From NCBI GenBank assembly GCA_963843525.1, contig CAWJKM010000007.1:405188-469187 (forward strand): DNA of 64,000 bases, in the 5' to 3' direction. Shown one piece after another: positions 1-50,803 of the stretch (positions within the stretch are counted from its first letter, which is position 1; every line of letters begins with the position of its first letter). This DNA comes from Ignavibacteriota bacterium (lineage in GTDB: Bacteria; Bacteroidota; Ignavibacteria; UBA10030; UBA6906). The position numbers and the translations under genes were made by a program. Below the pieces are notes generated by a model. It saw nothing but the letters and a program-made list of their open reading frames with translations, was not told where the DNA came from and ran no database searches.

Positions 1-460
1 GGTACGCCTGACAACTGCTATAAGGCCAATCTTCGGGCTCTTTAACAAGCCCCGCTTTGAGGGGGTTCTGGTGTATGTAACTTGCCAAATAGGGAACGCT
101 GTCATCTCGTTTGGCCCATTTCATTCCATATCGCCCCTGAAACAGATGGCCGCTGCGAGAAAGAGAGTGATTTAGCACTTTGGCGTAATCGCCGCAAACC
201 TGTTCCATCAAGCCTGATATTCCAAACGCCTGTAGCTGCTGGATCAACAGGTGAAAGTGGTTCGGCATGAGACAAAATGCCATTATGAGGAGCTCGCTGG
301 GGTTGAAGTACTGATTGATCAACTCCAGGAACTTCCTGTAATTCCGCTCCGAATGAAAAATAACCTGCTTATTGACACCTCTATTGTAGACGTGGAACGC
401 TTCGTTGCATGAGCGGATCATCTCAGATCGGGAATGTGCCTGCCGCGGAAATCGATTCAT
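1..460 (-). mobile_element. IS200/IS605-family HuH (Y1) tyrosine transposase, RAYT-like. The 5' end is complete (ATG at 458-460); the 3' end runs off the window start.
   Basis: Manual reverse-strand translation gives MNRFPRQAHSRSEMIRSCNEAFHVYNRGVNKQVIFHSERNYRKFLELINQYFNPSELLIMAFCLMPNHFHLLIQ...GHLFQGRYGMKWAKRDDSVPYLASYIHQNPLKAGLV... The HuH motif (HFHLL), GHLxQGRY and YIHxNP blocks are typical of the PF01797 transposase family. The ORF track omits it because it is window-truncated. Confidence 0.72.
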
Positions 461-683
461 TAGAATGTCCCTTGCTGTTCTGTTCGTTCGAAGATGGTCT
501 TCATATCGGCTTCAAGCATGCGGGACTTACGATTGTACTACGGACCAGTGGCCCATTGGGACTTCACTTGCGGCGATTTTCCATTTCTGTAGATGGTTGA
601 TTCCAAGTTGCCCGGTCCCAAGTGAAGGCCCTCATCTATCTATACGGCGCGCCCGGCCGATTTCCGACTACGAAAGGAAAAAA

Positions 684-705
684 GTGGCAGCCTAGGCAAC
701 CGTAG
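684..705. repeat. REP-like imperfect palindrome copy A: gtgg-GGCAGCCTAGGCAACC-gtag, preceded by an A-rich tract
   Basis: 16-bp near-palindrome centred on CCTAGG. Related copies at 747-762, 1961-1976 and 2071-2086. Sits about 225 bp upstream of the transposase start. Confidence 0.5.
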
Positions 706-744
706 ATTCTTCAAACGATCTTGCGGCAGAGCCGGCCGAAAAAG

Positions 745-764
745 ATGGCAGGCTAGGCAACCTT
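745..764. repeat. REP-like palindrome copy B (GGCAGGCTAGGCAACC), preceded by gaaaaagat
   Basis: Same motif family as 686-701, and the same A-rich 5' flank (gaaaaag[at]gg). Confidence 0.5.
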
Positions 765-1434
765 CTTTTCTCTCTTTGCACGATTGATACTTCAAGGCTC
801 AACAGCGTGTTCGATGAGAACCCCATCTGTGCTCCCCCTTCCAGGTGCGCAAACAACTTGTTTCCCACCCTGCTAGGAGCTCATCGGCGACAGAATCTAC
901 CGATACGTCCATGGACACTGACCAGCATCGCTCCAATTCTCGCGATGGCGATTCTCAGTGCAGGAATTGCATCCGGTGAGGGAGACCTCCTCTAGAAGAC
1001 GGCGCACGGCAAACTCGAAGTCGGAAGGAAAGAATCTCCGCTTAATTACGCCTACACAGTCCCCCTGAGCAACGACGAGATGCCCCTGATCCTGAGCGAT
1101 CAACCTCTGCAGACAAGGGTCTCAAGGACGTCTTTGAACGTATCCTCCGGGAGGAAGCCAACGAGATCCATACGGTCGAGTGCGTTCTCGATGCTCAGAA
1201 AACACCGATCTCCCCCTCGATACGGCACAAGGCTTTAACGACCGGCGGCGGTGGCGGATCGACGGAGGATCTCTTTGAGGCTACCAGGATCGATTCGAAG
1301 AGTGTCGCAGGAGGAGTCTATCGCAACTCTCCCGGATAATTTGAAGGTGTGAAGTGCACCTATGACGCCACATTCACGTCACCAGTCTGGAAGGAACCCC
1401 CGCCCAACTACAGTGGCGCCGCAGCAATTACTAG

Positions 1435-1728
1435 CCTCCAGGGAAAGGCGGCCCTTGTTTTCTTGAAAGCGGGCGAACGGGCATTGTCGCTGCGGTCAAA
1501 AGAACAATTGTCGTGAGCAGCCACGCCGATCTGGATGGTCCGAAGGGTATAGACATCGTGGAAATGATGAAACTCGATCCGGACCCGGAAAAAGCCAGAA
1601 TCGCGCGAGTCGATGTGAATGGAGAAACTGCGGTGATAACTCTTGAACAAAAGACAAAGGTGTCAAGGGAGACTACTACCATCAATCTCAATTTGGAAGA
1701 TGGACAGTGGAATGTCTCCCCTCGATAA
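1435..1728 (+). CDS. Small hypothetical protein, possibly a gene remnant
   Basis: Open frame only, with a GTG start at 1513 in the ORF track. No recognisable motifs. Embedded in a repeat-rich non-coding stretch. Confidence 0.15.
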   Translation, partial: PPGKGGPCFLESGRTGIVAAVKRTIVVSSHADLDGPKGIDIVEMMKLDPDPEKARIARVDVNGETAVITLEQKTKVSRETTTINLNLEDGQWNVSPR

Positions 1729-1956
1729 GCCCACTCAAATCATCGGCGTCCCTTTCCTAAGGACTCTTCATGCTTCGTGCTACTAGCGCGCGGCTCTCCA
1801 TGGAGCGTACTACATTCCGGGCTCAGGACCAGACCTGAGCCCTTCGCACTGTAACTCCCAGGGGTGTGCGTTTAGACACCTAGCGGCGTCGGAGTTTTCT
1901 TCGGGACAGGTGTAAGCGGTCAAGCTCTCGATCCGTCATTGACAGGTAGCCAAGAA

Positions 1957-1978
1957 AAGTGGCTGCCTAGGCAGCCAG
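1957..1978. repeat. Perfect 16-bp palindrome GGCTGCCTAGGCAGCC (copy C), preceded by agaaaagt
   Basis: Exact reverse-complement symmetry. It is a member of the same repeat family as copies A, B and D. Confidence 0.5.
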
Positions 1979-2062
1979 GAATATTCTTCCACAACGCGGG
2001 CACCCTACAGATCGACTCCAAACGAGGAACTCATATCTTGGGCCGCTATGTTTTTGCCCGGC

Positions 2063-2094
2063 AAAAACATGGCAGCCTAGGCAACCATGTTTTT
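2063..2094. repeat. Extended 32-bp palindrome aaaaacatgg-CAGCCTAGGCAA-ccatgttttt (copy D)
   Basis: Core GGCAGCCTAGGCAACC identical to copy A. The 10-bp flanking arms are perfectly inverted. Lies about 390 bp upstream of the sensor-kinase gene start. Confidence 0.5.
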
Positions 2095-2482
2095 TCCCCC
2101 AACATCAGTAATCCCCCCCCTTTTTACGCAATGGCCCCCCCTTTGTGCACTTAACAAAGCCCTCCGGCACCGTTTCCTGCCCCTCCTCAAAACAACAGCC
2201 GATTTCCGGTCAATTGTGCGTGTTTCGGAACAGAAGAGAAAGGGGCTGTTGGTATGGAAATTGTACCTTTTCATAGTCGCACTTGATAGAGAACCGTTCT
2301 GGAGGGCTATGTAGAAGCGATTTTGGGAAGTCTACTTCTGGGGATTAGCAATGCTCTGTTCCCTGCGACATAAGGTACTCCTGCAGCAAACATACCCCTC
2401 TGCTCTCCACCTCCAGAGGGGCAACGATTGCCTCCCTCGTGGGTCATCCGCCGGGAACAGTCCCATCCGTTTATGGCTCTTG

Positions 2483-5400
2483 ATGACGCTGGTGCTTCTC
2501 GCATCAATCCACCCCGGGAAAGTTCTTGCGCTTGACCCTCATAAAAGTATCGGCCAATACGGGCACGATGTCTGGCTGCGACAAAACGGCCTCCCGGCAA
2601 ATATCGTGAATACCCTCCTCCAGTCCAGCGACAGCTATCTCTGGGTCGGAACGACATCAGGCCTCTATCGTTTCGATGGCGTCCGCTTCAGCGAATGTTC
2701 CCTTGACACGCAGAAGCAGAAAATCTCAGAAACCATCGCCGCCGTGTGTGAATCGTCGGACAGGAGCATCTGGGTCGGAACGCTGTATGGCGGCCTGCGC
2801 CGCATTAAAGACGATCAGGTATCCATGTTCGGCGAAAAGGAAGGCTTGCCCGAACGGCAAATCCGAACCCTGTTCGAGAGCCGAGCCGGCCATCTCTGGG
2901 TGGGCACCACCAATGGGCTGTTTCGATCTTCTGGAAACACCTTTGTGCCCGTCCCCGTCGACCAGACCTTTTTCACCGGCATCACAGAGGATACCCAGGG
3001 AAGGATCTGGGTAGCAACTCATGACGGGGTCCGGATCTTCGACGATGAACGGATGACGTTGCTGCAGAGCCTCAGAACTGCAGAAGGACTCCCCGATAAA
3101 ATCACCACAGCGATTGCGTCGGATAGCAAGGGCAGTGTTTGGGTAGGGACTTCCCACGGTCTGTTCAAATGGAAGAACGGATCGACAACCGTGTATTCGA
3201 CAGGAAATGGCCTTCACAATGACCATGTCGGTGCAATGCATGAAGACAAAGACGGCAACTTCTGGGTCGGCACGTTTGGAGGTCTCTATCGCGAGCGCGA
3301 TGATGTCTGGACTTCCTTCACCGTGGATGACGGGCTGAGCAATAACCAGGTCCTCTCGATTACCGAAGATCGAGAGGGGAGTCTCTGGGTGGGAACACTC
3401 GAAGGATTGAATAGATTTAAAGATGTCAACCTTACGACGTATACCACGAAGGACGGGCTCGGTAATGACTACGTTTCAGGGATCGCCGAAACTCCTGACG
3501 GGGCAATCTACTTTCTCAGTAATGCAAACTCAACCGTTTCCTGCCTGCGAAACGGGCGGATGAGTACGTTTTCAAGCTCAGTCGGACCTACGTATGTCGC
3601 CCGCGACGGGAGCCTCTGGATCGGACAGAACGGCACACTGATCAATATCAGGAATGGACACATCACACGGTTCGATACCACTGCAGGTTTGCCCGCCAAG
3701 TGGATTTCCGCAATAACGGAAGATGCGCAAGGGTTGATCATCTTCGTGGATCATACCGGCTTGAAGAGATTTACCGGCGGTCGGGCCCGGCCTTTCCTCT
3801 TGCGGGATGGCAGGATGTATCCTTCCACGGAATACGTCGAATGTTTCTATACAGACCCCGGCGACACGCTATGGGTCGGGACGACAAATGGTCTCGTGCG
3901 AATGTATCGCGGGGAGTATAGCGTGTTCGGCACAGTCGATGGGATGGCCGATTACTGGGTGAGCGCCATCTATGATGATCACCGGGGAAGCCTCTGGTTT
4001 GGATCCGCGAATGGCGGATTGACCAGGTATTCGAACGGCAGGTTCACCGCCTACTCCGCGAAGAGCGGACTCTTCTCCAATGAGATCTATTGTGTTCTCG
4101 GCGATGCCCGGGGCGATCTCTGGCTGGGAAGTTCCCGGGGGATCGAGCACATTGCCAGAGCGGATCTGGATGGCTATGCAGCCGGAACATTGCCCGCGAT
4201 GTCGTCCCATGTTTATTCTATGGTGGACGGCATGAAGTCTGATGCATGCTTTGACGAGTGGCAACCCGCCGGAATCCGCGCGACAGACGGTCGCCTCTGG
4301 TTCTCAACGAAGAAAGGGGCGGTAATGATCGATCCGGGTGCCTTCAAACGGAACGAAGTCGTGCCGCCGGTCAGGATCGAGAAAGTGGTTGTCGAACAAC
4401 GAACAGTCGCTCCGGAACAGAAGCTGGTATTCGAGCCCGGCACAAAGAATCTCGAATTCCATTATACTGCCCTGAGTTTCCTGGTTCCCGAGCGCACGCT
4501 CTTCAAATACAAACTTGAGGGGTACGATCGAGACTGGGTGGAGGCTGGAACACGGCGCGCAGCCTATTATACGAGTCTCCCCCCCGGGAATTACCGCTTC
4601 CGGGTCATTGCCTGCAATAACGACGGACTGTGGAACGAAGACGGAGCGGACATCGGAGTAATCCTTACCCCGCACTTTTACGAGACATACTGGTTTACCG
4701 TCCTGGTTGCCGGTGTGATCCTGGCGTTAATCGTCCTCATTGTCAAGATGCGGCTCAGAACACTGCAGAGAAGGGAAAAGGAGCTCGAAAGAATCGTCCA
4801 TGTCAGGACAAAGGAGGTGCAGGATCAACGGTCCTTCCTTCGCAAAGTCATTGATTTGAATCCGAGCTTCATATTCGCAAAGGATTCTGAAGGGAGATTC
4901 ACCCTTGCCAACCGCGCGCTCGCTGAGGCATATGGGGCGACATCCGACGGCCTCATCGGAAGGACGGATGAGGCATTCAATCGTCACGGCGAGCAAGTGG
5001 ATAAATTCCGTGCCGATGATCGAGAAGTTTTTGAATCAAAGACGGAGAAGTACATCCCGGAGGAACGATTCACCGGGGCGGACGGCGAATCGCGTTGGCT
5101 GCAAGTCTCGAAAATCCCGATTACAAGCGAAGAGGGGACTGTGCAGCAGGTGCTTGCGGTAGCCACCGATATTACTGCGCAGAAAGCCGCAAAAGAAGTC
5201 GCCGAGGCCGCTACCCGTTCCAAAAGCGAATTCCTCGCAAATATGTCTCATGAAATCCGGACGCCGATGAACGCGGTGATAGGGATGTCCGGTCTTCTGG
5301 GCGACACAAATCTCGATGCAGAACAACGGGAGTTTGTCGATATCATCCGGACCAGTGGCGACACGCTGCTCACGATCATCAATGACATCCTGGACTTCTC

Positions 5401-6775
5401 GAAAATCGAGAGCGGCAAGCTCGAACTGGAAACCCAGGCGTTTGATTTGGCCCGTTGCATTGAAGATTCGCTGGACCTTCTTAGTTCAAAAGCATCCGAG
5501 AAGAGCATAGAACTGGCGTACCTCCTGGACGCGAGAACTCCCCGCGACATCGTGGGAGATAGGACGCGCCTCCGGCAAATCCTGATGAACCTCGTCGGCA
5601 ACGCTGTGAAGTTTACCCAAAACGGGGAAGTCATCGTTTCGGTCTCATCGAAATTGCTGCAGGATGATGAATATGAACTGCAATTTGCCGTTCGGGACAC
5701 CGGGATAGGCATACCGAAAGACCGGTTGGATCGATTGTTCAAGTCTTTCAGCCAGGTCGACTCTTCCACGACGCGGCACTATGGAGGAACGGGATTGGGG
5801 TTGGCGATCAGCAAGAGATTGAGTGAGATGATGAAGGGGAGGATGTGGGTGGAGAGCACGGAAGGGAAGGGTTCAACGTTCTCGTTTACGATCATCGCGA
5901 CGGCCGCGCCCAGCATTACCCGCGTGTCGCGGAAGGATGGGGAATTGCAGCTGGACGGGAAAGCGGTCTTGATTGTCGACGATAATGCGTCTAATCGACA
6001 GATCCTCACTCTGCAAACCCAGTCATGGGGAATGAAACCGACGGCTGTCGCTGACGGCCGCCAGGCCTTGGAGCTCCTCAAGCAAGAAAAGAAGTTCTCT
6101 CTGGCAATACTTGATATGCAAATGCCGGAGATGAATGGGGCACAGCTTTCCATCCAAATCCGCCGGACTTCAGGACTCCCGGCGCTTCCTCTCATATTGC
6201 TCACATCTGTGTCTGAGAGTAGCCGTCAATTGCGTGAACAGTATGGCGAGCTCAGCATTGCAGCCCATTTGAACAAACCCGTCAAATCGTCGCAGCTCTA
6301 TGAGACCATAGTCAGTGTTCTCGCCGATCACATAACAACAGAGCAAAAAGATCCGGTGAGCGAGGCCAAAGCTGTTGAGGGTGGTACAACGAGGAGACTC
6401 CGGATTCTGGTCGCCGAAGACAACGTGATCAATCAGAAAGTAGCCGTCCGGATTCTTGAACGATTTGGGTATCGTGCGGACATTGCTGCGAACGGCGTCG
6501 AGGCCATCGAAGCGATTCGCCGTCAGTCCTACGACCTGGTATTCATGGATGTCCATATGCCGGGAATGGACGGCCTCGAGGCAACACGGCACATTTGCAG
6601 CGAGTGGCCAACCGGGCGGCCCAAGATCATCGCGATGACTGCGGATGCGTTGCAGGGGGACCGTGAGCAATGTCTGGAAGCCGGCATGGACGGGTACATC
6701 AGCAAACCTGTCCGTGTAGAGGAACTGCGGACTATTCTGGAGAAGTATGAGGCGGAAGTCTGTGACCGCGTGTAG
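2483..6775 (+). CDS. Hybrid sensor histidine kinase/response regulator. Periplasmic beta-propeller + Y_Y_Y sensor, TM helix, PAS, HisKA/HATPase, and two receiver domains. No DNA-binding output domain.
   Basis: Repeated 'LWVGT..GL.R..G' propeller repeats; TM helix FTVLVAGVILALIVLIVKM; H-box SHEIRTPMNAVIGM; G-box GTGLGLAISKRL. REC1 is LIVDDNASNRQ...DMQMPEMNG; REC2 is ILVAEDNVINQ...DVHMPGMDG. The ORF is open from 2351. I prefer the ATG at 2483 because it begins a hydrophobic signal-like segment. Confidence 0.85.
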   Translation: MTLVLLASIHPGKVLALDPHKSIGQYGHDVWLRQNGLPANIVNTLLQSSDSYLWVGTTSGLYRFDGVRFSECSLDTQKQKISETIAAVCESSDRSIWVGTLYGGLRRIKDDQVSMFGEKEGLPERQIRTLFESRAGHLWVGTTNGLFRSSGNTFVPVPVDQTFFTGITEDTQGRIWVATHDGVRIFDDERMTLLQSLRTAEGLPDKITTAIASDSKGSVWVGTSHGLFKWKNGSTTVYSTGNGLHNDHVGAMHEDKDGNFWVGTFGGLYRERDDVWTSFTVDDGLSNNQVLSITEDREGSLWVGTLEGLNRFKDVNLTTYTTKDGLGNDYVSGIAETPDGAIYFLSNANSTVSCLRNGRMSTFSSSVGPTYVARDGSLWIGQNGTLINIRNGHITRFDTTAGLPAKWISAITEDAQGLIIFVDHTGLKRFTGGRARPFLLRDGRMYPSTEYVECFYTDPGDTLWVGTTNGLVRMYRGEYSVFGTVDGMADYWVSAIYDDHRGSLWFGSANGGLTRYSNGRFTAYSAKSGLFSNEIYCVLGDARGDLWLGSSRGIEHIARADLDGYAAGTLPAMSSHVYSMVDGMKSDACFDEWQPAGIRATDGRLWFSTKKGAVMIDPGAFKRNEVVPPVRIEKVVVEQRTVAPEQKLVFEPGTKNLEFHYTALSFLVPERTLFKYKLEGYDRDWVEAGTRRAAYYTSLPPGNYRFRVIACNNDGLWNEDGADIGVILTPHFYETYWFTVLVAGVILALIVLIVKMRLRTLQRREKELERIVHVRTKEVQDQRSFLRKVIDLNPSFIFAKDSEGRFTLANRALAEAYGATSDGLIGRTDEAFNRHGEQVDKFRADDREVFESKTEKYIPEERFTGADGESRWLQVSKIPITSEEGTVQQVLAVATDITAQKAAKEVAEAATRSKSEFLANMSHEIRTPMNAVIGMSGLLGDTNLDAEQREFVDIIRTSGDTLLTIINDILDFSKIESGKLELETQAFDLARCIEDSLDLLSSKASEKSIELAYLLDARTPRDIVGDRTRLRQILMNLVGNAVKFTQNGEVIVSVSSKLLQDDEYELQFAVRDTGIGIPKDRLDRLFKSFSQVDSSTTRHYGGTGLGLAISKRLSEMMKGRMWVESTEGKGSTFSFTIIATAAPSITRVSRKDGELQLDGKAVLIVDDNASNRQILTLQTQSWGMKPTAVADGRQALELLKQEKKFSLAILDMQMPEMNGAQLSIQIRRTSGLPALPLILLTSVSESSRQLREQYGELSIAAHLNKPVKSSQLYETIVSVLADHITTEQKDPVSEAKAVEGGTTRRLRILVAEDNVINQKVAVRILERFGYRADIAANGVEAIEAIRRQSYDLVFMDVHMPGMDGLEATRHICSEWPTGRPKIIAMTADALQGDREQCLEAGMDGYISKPVRVEELRTILEKYEAEVCDRV

Positions 6776-48631: not shown

Positions 48632-50803
48632 ATGAAAATCCCGGCGTTTATCATTTCTCTGGCTACCACGGCGTTCTTTGCTGTTGCTCCGGCCGACTCT
48701 CAATGGACCCAACTCGGGCCTCCGGGACCCGTATCAGCACTCACGACAGTGGGAGGGACAATTCTGGCAGGATCTTTGGGCGGAGGAGTCTATGTGTCAT
48801 CAGACAATGGAGGATCCTGGAAAGCCAGTTCAACGGGGCTGACGAGTCTGAATGTAACGGGCCTTGCGACGAATGGGAGCAACGTACTTGCCGCCACAAG
48901 CGACGCAGGAGTGTTTCTCAGCACAGACGAGGGGATTACCTGGAACACCAGCAAAACGGGGTTGATCAGCCTGAGCATCAATTCAATCGCATCGGTCGGC
49001 GCCACCCTCTTTGTGGGCCCCGGTAACTTCGGGGCGTTCATGTCGACGGACGGGGGAACGACCTGGGCTCCCGCCGGGAAAGGGTTCGCCAGCGGCACGG
49101 CAACGTCGTTTGTTAGCCTGGGAGGGTTGATTTTCGGCGGCTCCCTCCAGAAGGGAGTTTACATTTCAAGTGACGGCGGCAAAAATTGGTCGCAATCGAA
49201 TGCCGGCCTCACTTCGCCGTTTGTTGCCTCACTCGCAGTGAGTGGAACGCATGTCTTTGCCGGGACACAGAGCGCGGGAGTCTTTGTTTCCGCCGACAGC
49301 GGCGCTTCGTGGAATCTTGTAGGAAACGGGTTGACCAACAAAGAAATGGTGTCGTTGACCGCAGTGACTCCGTCAGGTGGAAACGCGACACTGATTGCAG
49401 GGACAGCGAGCGGAGGAATGTTCGTCTCAACGGACAACGGCGCTTCGTGGAACCCGGCAGAACTTTCCCTGGTGAACAAGGCCGTTAACACGCTTGCCGC
49501 CGCAGGGACGAGTGCCTATGCCGGAACAGGAGACGGAGTTTTTGTGTCAAATGATGGGGGATTCCACTGGACCGATCTCAGCTCCAACCTTTCCAATTCA
49601 AGCGTTACGGCGGTTGTTGCCGGCGGGGGGAACATCTTCGTCGGTTTGAAAAACGGAGGGGTCTGCATTTCTACGGGCGCCGTGGAATCCTGGACTCGTG
49701 CCAACCAGGGATTGACGAGCACTGCAATCACATCGATGACACGTTTGGGTACAACGACCTTCGCGGGGACCGGGGGAGGAGGCGTGTTCGAACGCGCAGA
49801 CAGCGACACAATGTGGACGGATCAGAGCGTCGGTTTACCGACCGACTTTCTCAATGCTCTCCAGGCACTCGGGACGAGGCTTTTTGCCGGCCCTGCAGGA
49901 GCCGGAATATACTATTCCTCCAATGGCGGATCGACATGGAATGCCGGCGGTGGATCGAATCCCGGCGGTTTGGCGGGGACAAATGTCCTTGCTTTCACCC
50001 GCGGAAGGAATGTGGTCATGGCGGGTACGGACGGATTTGGTGTTTTGATATCAGCCACTGACGGGCAGAACTGGGGCTTCCCAGACACGACCTCTTCTGT
50101 GTTGAACAGCATGAGATCCATGAGAGTGAGTGCGGCTCCGCTTCCCTCCCACGTCCTCTCCTTATTTACACTCGATACTCTCGTGTTTGCGGGAACCAGT
50201 GGCGGACCGTATGTGACGAGTGACGACGGGTCGCATTGGAACGCGGCAGGAAATGGTTTCGGGACGCATCCGTTACTCACGATGGCAGCGAGCGGGAATG
50301 TGCTGATCGCAGGAACAAGCGGTGCCGGGGTGTTTGTGTCCGCTGACCGTGGGGCAAACTGGCAGGCCGCAAATTCCGGGTTGCCGGTCTCCACAATTCA
50401 GGGTCTGGCGATCGATGGAGATTATGTGTACGCCGGCACACAGTGGGGCGGTCTCTGCAGACGAACCATCAGCGATCTAGTGACATCACTCGCTGTCGAG
50501 AATCACCCGTCCCTCCCTGTGGAGTTTCGGCTGGAACAAAATTATCCGAACCCGTTCAATCCATCAACAGTTATCAGTGGACAGTTGACGGTAGACAGTC
50601 GGGTGAGGCTTGTGGTGTATGATATGTTGGGACGTGTCGTGGCGACGTTGGCTGATGGGAGATATCCTGCCGGGAGATACTCGTTTGGCTTCGATGCCAC
50701 GGGTTTGGCGAGTGGCGTGTATCTCTACAGGATCGACGTGCGTGGGACCAGGAGGTCGGGGGAGAGCTATAGTGCAACGAGAGCGATGGTTCTGCTTCGA
50801 TAA
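48632..50803 (+). CDS. Secreted multi-repeat BNR/sortilin (xyloglucanase-type) repeat protein with T9SS C-terminal sorting domain
   Basis: About 14 repeats of 'GVF(V/L)S.D.G.SW...GL'. The C-terminal NYPNPFNPSTVISGQL...VVYDMLGRVVATL...GVYLYRID matches the Por/T9SS sorting domain (TIGR04183-like). Confidence 0.75.
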   Translation: MKIPAFIISLATTAFFAVAPADSQWTQLGPPGPVSALTTVGGTILAGSLGGGVYVSSDNGGSWKASSTGLTSLNVTGLATNGSNVLAATSDAGVFLSTDEGITWNTSKTGLISLSINSIASVGATLFVGPGNFGAFMSTDGGTTWAPAGKGFASGTATSFVSLGGLIFGGSLQKGVYISSDGGKNWSQSNAGLTSPFVASLAVSGTHVFAGTQSAGVFVSADSGASWNLVGNGLTNKEMVSLTAVTPSGGNATLIAGTASGGMFVSTDNGASWNPAELSLVNKAVNTLAAAGTSAYAGTGDGVFVSNDGGFHWTDLSSNLSNSSVTAVVAGGGNIFVGLKNGGVCISTGAVESWTRANQGLTSTAITSMTRLGTTTFAGTGGGGVFERADSDTMWTDQSVGLPTDFLNALQALGTRLFAGPAGAGIYYSSNGGSTWNAGGGSNPGGLAGTNVLAFTRGRNVVMAGTDGFGVLISATDGQNWGFPDTTSSVLNSMRSMRVSAAPLPSHVLSLFTLDTLVFAGTSGGPYVTSDDGSHWNAAGNGFGTHPLLTMAASGNVLIAGTSGAGVFVSADRGANWQAANSGLPVSTIQGLAIDGDYVYAGTQWGGLCRRTISDLVTSLAVENHPSLPVEFRLEQNYPNPFNPSTVISGQLTVDSRVRLVVYDMLGRVVATLADGRYPAGRYSFGFDATGLASGVYLYRIDVRGTRRSGESYSATRAMVLLR

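Follow-up and report, generated by a model that had tools for sequence, protein, structure and literature searches.

Four short palindromes near the left end of a 64,000-nt stretch of DNA from an Ignavibacteriota bacterium (contig CAWJKM010000007.1, positions 405,188 to 469,187; hereafter the window) were analyzed together with the Y1 transposase gene that lies beside them. We conclude, with a probability of about 0.85, that the palindromes are copies of a repetitive extragenic palindrome (REP) and that the adjacent gene encodes their cognate enzyme, a REP-associated tyrosine transposase (RAYT), the two together forming a REPtron. The first-pass annotation of this DNA had proposed such an arrangement and, as an alternative, operator sites for a regulator. 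The REP/RAYT proposal is supported by the dispersal of the repeats between genes in relatives, by their presence beside every close ortholog of the transposase examined, and by their position on both sides of the gene in a sister strain. The system is a REP/RAYT system of an atypical type without the GTAG tetranucleotide. Its repeats are of a known bacterial kind and ordinary as such, although this example had not been described before. What sets the system apart is that its arrays keep one orientation and a 40-nt phasing, that they include a conserved linker, and that the loop of the unit is CTAG and contains a transition hotspot. REP/RAYT systems are well studied in Proteobacteria; to our knowledge they have barely been described in the Fibrobacteres-Chlorobi-Bacteroidetes (FCB) group, and no paper linking them to Ignavibacteria was found in the literature searched.

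The repeat unit and its copies in the window

The 16-nt pattern reported earlier, GGCWGSCTAGGCARCC, was matched exactly on the plus strand at 686-701, 747-762, 1961-1976, and 2071-2086, compared to no matches expected by chance (0 in 100 shuffles), and no further family-like match was found in the 64-kb window when three mismatches were allowed. Scanning the window for the full 31-nt unit with a position weight matrix built from the copies of relatives returned these four copies (A to D; Table 1) at 19 to 54 bits, relative to a null maximum of 5.3 bits, and no fifth copy. In a repeat search the copies grew to approximately 34 nt, as flanks rich in A on the left and in T on the right were included, and the A-run that had been described on the 5' side was present at all four. 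The copies occupy two intergenic spacers.

The anatomy of the unit was determined from 66 copies, comprising those of the window and those of related loci (L024-L120). The consensus unit is 31 nt long (AAAAACATGGCAGCCTAGGCAACCATnTTTT) and consists of an A-run, CATGGCAGCC-TA-GGCAACCATG, and a T-run, which make up an imperfect palindrome with a CTAG loop. The right arm, GCAACC, was almost invariant, the left arm was GGCAG in 47 of the 66 copies, and the asymmetric core GGCAG...CAACC was retained in 46. Because GGCAG faces CAACC, the stem contains C.A and A.A mismatches on the top strand and T.G and T.T mismatches on the bottom strand. Fully symmetric variants, either GGTTG...CAACC or, as in copy C, GGCTG...CAGCC, were a minority. 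The only strongly variable core positions were the outer loop bases (unit positions 15 and 18), with the rest of the core invariant. Of the centers, 25 read CCTAGG, 17 CTTAGG, and 12 CCTAAG, and a double mutant occurred once. Loop variation was almost exclusively a matter of transitions at the inner C of either strand, a C-to-T hotspot that could be explained by deamination, whether of 5-methylcytosine or of loop cytosines exposed by the hairpin.

Copy D, the consensus form, and a copy in a related metagenome-assembled genome (MAG; locus L050) share 32 nt at 100% identity. The 32 nt at 2063-2094 had been called a perfect palindrome, which proved incorrect, because the core GGCAGCC/GGCAACC contains two mismatched pairs; 28 of the 32 positions are self-complementary. 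The 31-nt unit is thus an imperfect palindrome of the length expected of a REP (20 to 40 bp), with the potential to form a hairpin. The copy at 1961-1976 is indeed a perfect 16-bp palindrome, as reported, and the symmetry of copy C extends to 18 bp (TGGCTGCCTAGGCAGCCA, 1960-1977). When folded as single-stranded DNA (ssDNA), copy D gave predicted energies of -9.5 kcal/mol for the top strand (z -3.3) and -11.9 kcal/mol for the bottom strand (z -4.3), and the copy C hairpin gave -7.5 kcal/mol. Copy A does have the GTGG and GTAG tetranucleotides noted on its flanks. GTAG does not characterize the family, however, as the sister strain (locus L113) reads ATAG at this position and the other copies lack it. 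Just upstream of copy D is a partial repeat of its right half (Table 1), which is probably the remnant of a doublet partner. Its spacing fits the 39- to 41-nt phasing that is the commonest in the family; taken alone it is not significant (weight matrix score of -8.9), and it overlaps a spacer palindrome, TTTTTGCCCGGCAAAAA (2051-2067).

The transposase and its association with the repeats

The transposase gene runs off the left end of the window, and its reading frame is intact. The encoded protein matched Pfam Y1_Tnp (E 2e-11), and the portion within the window was 100% identical to a full-length protein of 199 aa (P0001) from the sister strain; orthologs share 48 to 65% identity with it. Several comparisons placed this protein closer to TnpA-REP than to IS200 transposases, which upholds its initial description as RAYT-like. 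Its sole NCBIfam match was REP_Tyr_transpos (69.7 bits, E 2.4e-19), and the sole Protein Data Bank (PDB) match obtained with the single sequence was Escherichia coli TnpA-REP (4ER8, E 0.0055). When a profile of 24 clade members was compared to the PDB, 4ER8 was matched at 2.2e-8, while ISDra2 and other IS200/IS605 transposases were matched at 2e-3 or weaker. The motifs PNHFH (H68 and H70) and Y128-IHQNP, together with N132 and W145, were invariant in the 24 clade members. The HUH and tyrosine motifs of the window protein align with HMH and YIYINP of 4ER8, and it therefore has the HUH motif and the single catalytic tyrosine in a YIxxNP context that characterize RAYTs.

The left flank of the gene was taken from locus L113, the sister-strain contig encoding P0001, which overlaps the window and reaches 424 nt past its left end. 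In L113, copies A and B are upstream of the RAYT gene and a further consensus copy lies, inverted, 18 nt after the stop codon, so that the gene is flanked by its cognate repeats, as in a REPtron. This locus differs from the window by a few single-nucleotide polymorphisms, the GTAG/ATAG position included. Position 1 of L113 (from SRR28002858) corresponds to window position 781, 12 nt after copy B, and a contig end so near a copy is consistent with these repeats breaking short-read assemblies.

The same association was found at other loci. Each ortholog of 59 to 100% identity (L112, L113, L114, L117/118, and L120) had at least two copies upstream, on the strand opposite the gene, the nearest approximately 165 to 225 nt from the start codon. 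The gene for P0003 (63% identity), on contig_125037 of MAG CAWESL01, a contig that itself has dispersed copies, had four upstream copies, and those for P0006, P0004, and P0005 (59 to 61%) had two to four each. The repeats beside P0002 (65%; L115/116) were of a variant form, GGTACCCTAGGCATCC, and those beside P0011 (51%; L119) were an unrelated palindrome, GACCGTCACCTTTAAGGTGACGGTC; at both, repeats stood on either side of the gene. The repeat thus co-varies with the transposase lineage, with the 59 to 100% orthologs keeping the same core. Each contig had one RAYT gene, and its adjacency to a glyoxalase gene was kept in L112, L114, and L120. RAYTs are defined by a gene that is single copy, vertically inherited, flanked by repeats, and co-varying with them (PMC5581495; PMC6006769), a pattern that the present gene, which is probably single copy and vertically inherited, appears to follow. 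Orthologs associated with identical, variant, or unrelated repeats provide material for asking how RAYTs without a GTAG guide recognize hairpins, and the substrate itself is compact, being 31 nt long with a conserved mismatch.

Two further observations were made at these loci. In L119, the unrelated palindrome on either side of the 51% ortholog (4920-4950 and 5580-5607) is perfect, (GA)CCGTCACCTT(T/A)AAGGTGACGGTC, and is presumably the REP family belonging to that ortholog. In L115 (38-333 and 1189-1274; also in L116), the first 18 codons of the glyoxalase gene together with the variant repeat are duplicated on both sides of the RAYT gene, which suggests a repeat-associated rearrangement.

Flanking hairpins could also be the left and right ends of an autonomous element of the IS200/IS605 type that carries the Y1 transposase. 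Such an element would account for the inverted hairpins on both sides of the gene in L113, the membership of the protein in the Y1_Tnp superfamily, and the duplicated host sequence on both sides of the gene in L115/L116. We consider it extremely improbable, because tblastn detected a single transposase copy in the window and none in 12 loci that bear the repeats, no tnpB-like neighbor was present at the RAYT loci examined, three genomes have the gene at a conserved chromosomal position, there are far more repeats than transposase genes, and the protein is closer to TnpA-REP. A reading of the repeats as miniature inverted-repeat transposable elements was rejected because the unit is not long enough for such an element, lacks target duplications, and has no DDE transposase gene in its vicinity. 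The family does share with IS608 and ISDra2 the enzyme superfamily and the inferred recognition of subterminal ssDNA hairpins, but their genes are multicopy, and PDB matches to them were approximately 10^5-fold weaker than that to TnpA-REP.

Among the closest known systems is TnpA-REP subclass 2.6 (Quentin et al. 2018), which equals RAYT group 5 (Bertels et al. 2017). Its members are described as mostly from Bacteroidetes, and the atypical hairpins that flank them lack GT[AG]G and also occur at other sites of the genome (PMC6006769). The window protein resembles this subclass in that its YIHQNP fits the YIH[QN]NP motif, its HuH motif has the form NHxH, its length falls at approximately 180 to 200 aa, its host belongs to the FCB group, and its gene is flanked by weak-stem hairpins without GT[AG]G that have copies elsewhere. 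It differs in having NHFH, with an F outside the published NH[LIV]H, and FQ in place of the WQ motif. The placement was made from published motif descriptions, and Ignavibacteriota hosts are unmentioned in PMC6006769. Pseudomonas REPIN-RAYT systems (Bertels and Rainey 2011) have a single-copy, vertically inherited RAYT, as the present one probably is, and in both systems an overrepresented repeat flanks the RAYT gene, is dispersed in extragenic DNA, and co-varies with the RAYT by lineage; a REPIN, however, is an inverted REP doublet, whereas doublets of the present family are direct and every 31-nt unit forms a hairpin of its own.

The E. coli REPs, their bacterial interspersed mosaic elements (BIMEs), and TnpA-REP resemble this system in several respects: the extragenic palindrome is short and imperfect and has a conserved mismatch in its stem, the clusters are mosaics that include a conserved linker, one transposase gene stands beside its own repeats, and the catalytic HUH and tyrosine motifs align. 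The differences are that the units described here have no 5' GTAG guide, occur in one orientation (43:4) with 40- and 72-nt phasing rather than as alternating Y and Z REPs, and have A- and T-run flanks that lengthen the palindrome as well as a CTAG loop; the proteins are also distantly related. E. coli TnpA-REP binds and cleaves REPs as ssDNA (PMC3479197, as summarized in PMC3733652), and, according to the same summary, repairing the mismatch near the loop abolishes cleavage, which provides a rationale for the conserved CA/AA mismatch. By analogy with TnpA-REP and the IS200/IS605 transposases, the unit would fold into a hairpin when the DNA is single stranded, as at a replication fork, and the RAYT would recognize the mismatched hairpin and its flanking bases. 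Cleavage would proceed through Tyr128 and a 5'-phosphotyrosine intermediate, with the metal held by His68 and His70, and rejoining of the strands would copy or move units and build phased arrays.

Arrays in related genomes and the weighing of explanations

The spread of the repeat was measured by scanning one genome per species for TGGCWGSCTAGGCARCC. At least 111 stretches were returned, mostly single chance matches without the flanks. At least 15 stretches came from two Ignavibacteriota MAGs of one soil metagenome, and all of these had the A-run and T-run flanks. The window itself comes from neither of these two MAGs, which it matched only at the repeats and at one weak stretch of 68% identity (50540-50715); GC contents were alike, at 0.55 to 0.58. 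In one of the MAGs, CAWESL01, the weight matrix identified at least 48 copies at no fewer than 12 sites on two contigs totaling 1.2 Mb. An exact 22-mer of the repeat was found on a single Joint Genome Institute (JGI) metagenome contig, and the family is therefore confined to a narrow lineage. At 14 related loci, all copies lay between open reading frames (ORFs; approximate calls), in convergent, tandem, and divergent spacers, and the repeat is thus extragenic, as a REP should be.

Start-to-start distances within the arrays were quantized, at 39 to 41 nt for 27 pairs and 71 to 73 nt for 10 pairs, with a few at 81 or 90 to 91 nt, and arrays contained up to 7 units. The 72-nt pairs shared a linker of approximately 41 nt, beginning GAAATTCTTCATTTTGAGGCCGTAAACAAAGGAC, in 7 of 8 loci. 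Given this conserved linker and the phasing, the typical cluster is two units 9 nt apart, the linker, and again two units 9 nt apart, a BIME-like mosaic of repeats and linker at fixed spacing. The window spacings (61 and 109 nt) and the spacers between copies A and B and between C and D did not fit the MAG linker, MAFFT alignment giving no support for homology, and no match to an integration host factor (IHF)-type consensus was seen in the linker by inspection. On CAWESL010000008.1 (535 kb; L078, L073, L098, L112, and L107), copies were on the minus strand at approximately 248 and 424 kb and on the plus strand at approximately 448, 462 to 475, and 512 kb, and those on the second contig were mostly on the minus strand from 280 to 528 kb. 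A replication origin or terminus could lie at the switch in orientation near 432 to 448 kb on CAWESL010000008.1; the 8-kb loci were too noisy in GC skew to bear on this.

A number of results weigh against the REP/RAYT conclusion. Neither a GT[AG]G nor a CGTC tag was present at the foot of the hairpin, where the flanks are the A-run and the T-run, although untagged REP families are known (PMC3733652). Adjacent pairs within 300 nt were in the same orientation in 43 cases and in opposite orientations in 4, unlike the alternating units of BIMEs and REPINs. The flanks of copies A and B have decayed, and both copies fold poorly as ssDNA. The stem gave no covariation signal beyond conservation; covariation is undetectable here because the unit sequence is simply conserved. 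The NCBIfam score of the transposase did not pass the equivalog cutoff of NF047646 (69.7 versus 80 bits); the window RAYT is of a distant subclass. Finally, the position weight scan found no copies in the other 62 kb of the window, and the five known copies of its lineage are all within approximately 1.7 kb of the RAYT gene. The empty 62 kb is uninformative rather than contrary, because a stretch of this size would contain no copy about half the time if sites were as dense as in the MAG (one or more per 100 kb).

These last results bear directly on the possibility that the repeats of this genome are confined to the RAYT locus, as a relic or as a family that never expanded. We regard this as unlikely, though it deserves to be taken seriously. 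It gains from the position of all five copies beside the RAYT, with none among the dozens of spacers in the other 62 kb, from the degenerate state of copies A, B, and C and the neighboring pseudogene, from the occurrence of the exact 22-mer on only one JGI contig, and from the REPtrons without a dispersed family that are described in the literature (PMC3733652). It has to be set against the at least 48 dispersed copies in the related MAG that carries the 63% ortholog, the perfect consensus of copy D with its 32 nt of identity to a MAG copy, and the intact RAYT frame.

The structure of the unit, an A-tract, a GC-rich hairpin, and a T-tract, is also that of a bidirectional intrinsic terminator. 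The RNA formed by the core and a CAUG stem was predicted to fold at -7.8 kcal/mol for the top strand and -10.3 kcal/mol for the bottom strand and is followed by U5 in both orientations, the minus strand of copy C scored as terminator-like in a terminator scan, and many copies are between convergent or tandem genes. It nevertheless appears improbable that the units are primarily terminators or mRNA-end hairpins maintained by selection rather than spread by a transposase. Functional terminators do not share 31 near-identical nucleotides across sites and genomes. The units described here are arrayed at 40-nt phasing, as many as 7 together; copies also occur in spacers with divergent promoters and, without exception, upstream of the RAYT gene, their orientation is independent of the direction of the upstream gene (matching in 4 of 6 tandem cases), and the conserved stem mismatch makes the hairpin weaker. 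Termination is compatible with the REP interpretation as a secondary effect. Given the A-tract, hairpin, and T-tract, two-way termination or stabilization of mRNA ends is a likely by-product, and the RNA fold with its U5 makes two-way termination a plausible side effect.

The first-pass alternative, that the palindromes are operators for a regulator of the sensor kinase, was not supported, since the motif follows the transposase and not the kinase and forms arrays of up to 7 units. The wider form of this explanation, local operators for a dimeric regulator of either the kinase or the transposase, is in our judgment very improbable. The cores are near-palindromic, copies C and D precede the kinase by 264 to 374 nt, copies A and B precede the RAYT start by 225 to 300 nt, and autoregulation by the RAYT is conceivable, as upstream arrays are conserved at all orthologs. 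In other genomes, however, the motif is found where convergent genes end and next to genes of unrelated kinds, and the RAYT has neighbors other than the kinase; the half-site asymmetry is conserved, which a symmetric dimer site does not require, and operators do not resemble units with A-run and T-run flanks in 40-nt arrays. In practical terms, the analysis speaks against these sites being regulatory sites of the sensor kinase, and they are a likely cause of assembly breaks.

Within the REP/RAYT interpretation, the system might represent a distinct mode of REP activity, in which the GTAG-less 31-nt unit, its mismatch, and the 40- and 72-nt same-orientation arrays with their linker stayed essentially unchanged while the RAYT diverged to approximately 60% identity. 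We consider this doubtful. If it were true, recognition and cleavage would have another geometry, for example, cutting in or beside the CTAG loop where the mutational hotspot lies, and a host-level role would maintain the arrays, for example, as two-way terminators or as a phased binding platform.

Neighboring features of the window

The approximately 1.9 kb between the transposase and the sensor kinase had been described as containing no convincing coding sequence apart from a 98-codon ORF. There is indeed no intact ORF, but the region does contain a frameshifted pseudogene (Table 1), and the 98-codon ORF (1435-1728) is its C-terminal piece. The codon-usage trace shifts frame from +3 to +2 to +1 across 900-1730, and tblastn aligned pieces at 888-1118, 1109-1477, and 1435-1725 in three frames with in-frame stops, giving at least two frameshifts and, near 990 and 1340, two in-frame stops. 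The joined translation has homologs of 261 to 298 aa with 45 to 68% identity and a signal-peptide-like N terminus. The pseudogene separates the two repeat pairs and is outside the repeat system, and repeat copies were absent from the loci of its intact homologs (L121-L123). Its position places copies A and B in the divergent spacer between it and the RAYT gene, and copies C and D are in the tandem spacer leading from the pseudogene to a hybrid sensor kinase gene, 374 and 264 nt, respectively, upstream of its ATG at 2351, in agreement with the distances first reported.

Table 1. Repeat copies, genes, and other elements located in the window
Feature	Position	Strand	Details
RAYT/TnpA-REP-like Y1 (HUH) transposase, 5' part	2..460	-	153 of 199 codons; rest beyond left end of window
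Conserved element TCGGAAA-N15-GTA	640..667	-	Between repeat array and RAYT start codon
REP copy A, AAAAAAGTGGCAGCCTAGGCAACCGTAGATT	678..708	+	37.4 bits; T-run flank decayed; weak ssDNA fold
REP copy B, AAAAAGATGGCAGGCTAGGCAACCTTCTTTT	739..769	+	46.4 bits; starts 61 nt after A, same orientation
Pseudogene of conserved 261-298-aa hypothetical protein	888..1728	+	From codon usage, homologs, and tblastn
REP copy C, symmetric variant	1953..1984		19.2 bits; A-run on one flank only
Partial repeat of copy D right half	2041..2059	+	GGCCGCTATGTTTTTGCCC versus GGCAACCATGTTTTTTCCC, 79% identity; 39 nt upstream of D
REP copy D, consensus form, AAAAACATGGCAGCCTAGGCAACCATGTTTT	2063..2093	+	53.9 bits
Hybrid sensor kinase, 1474 aa	2351..6775	+	Reg_prop beta-propeller repeats, Y_Y_Y, PAS, HisKA, HATPase_c, two receiver domains

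In an alignment of the regions upstream of six orthologs, the sole invariant block was TCGGAAA-N15-GTA(T/G)A. Its coordinates in the window were mapped from L113, and it was also found at approximately 5847-5871 in L112 and at equivalent positions in L114, L117, L120, and L115. This element may be a promoter or another control site. A sigma-70 promoter scan of 400-2500 gave no match, and a reading of TGGCAG...GCAAC as a sigma-54 promoter was rejected on inspection, as the GG-to-GC offset is 10 nt and 12 nt are required. Rfam returned nothing at gathering score in the whole window, where there were also no tRNAs, and a match to G-CSF_SLDE within 1-3000 was discarded as a sub-threshold chance match (E 0.09).

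CTAG, the loop sequence of the repeat, is strongly depleted in the window, with 17 sites compared to approximately 244 expected from base composition and approximately 41 expected from a Markov model. The sites are at 692, 753, 873, 992, 1431, 1783, 1880, 1967, and 2077, plus 8 more; 9 of the 17 are within the 1.4-kb region of the repeats and the pseudogene, 4 of these being repeat loops, and most CTAG sites of related loci are likewise within repeats. The heptamer ATTCTTC is common to copies A and C, 5 to 7 nt to the right of each. Downstream of copy D are three runs of cytosines, C5 at 2096-2100, C8 at 2113-2120, and C7 at 2135-2141, which lie approximately 210 to 250 nt upstream of the sensor kinase start and are possible slippage-prone tracts.

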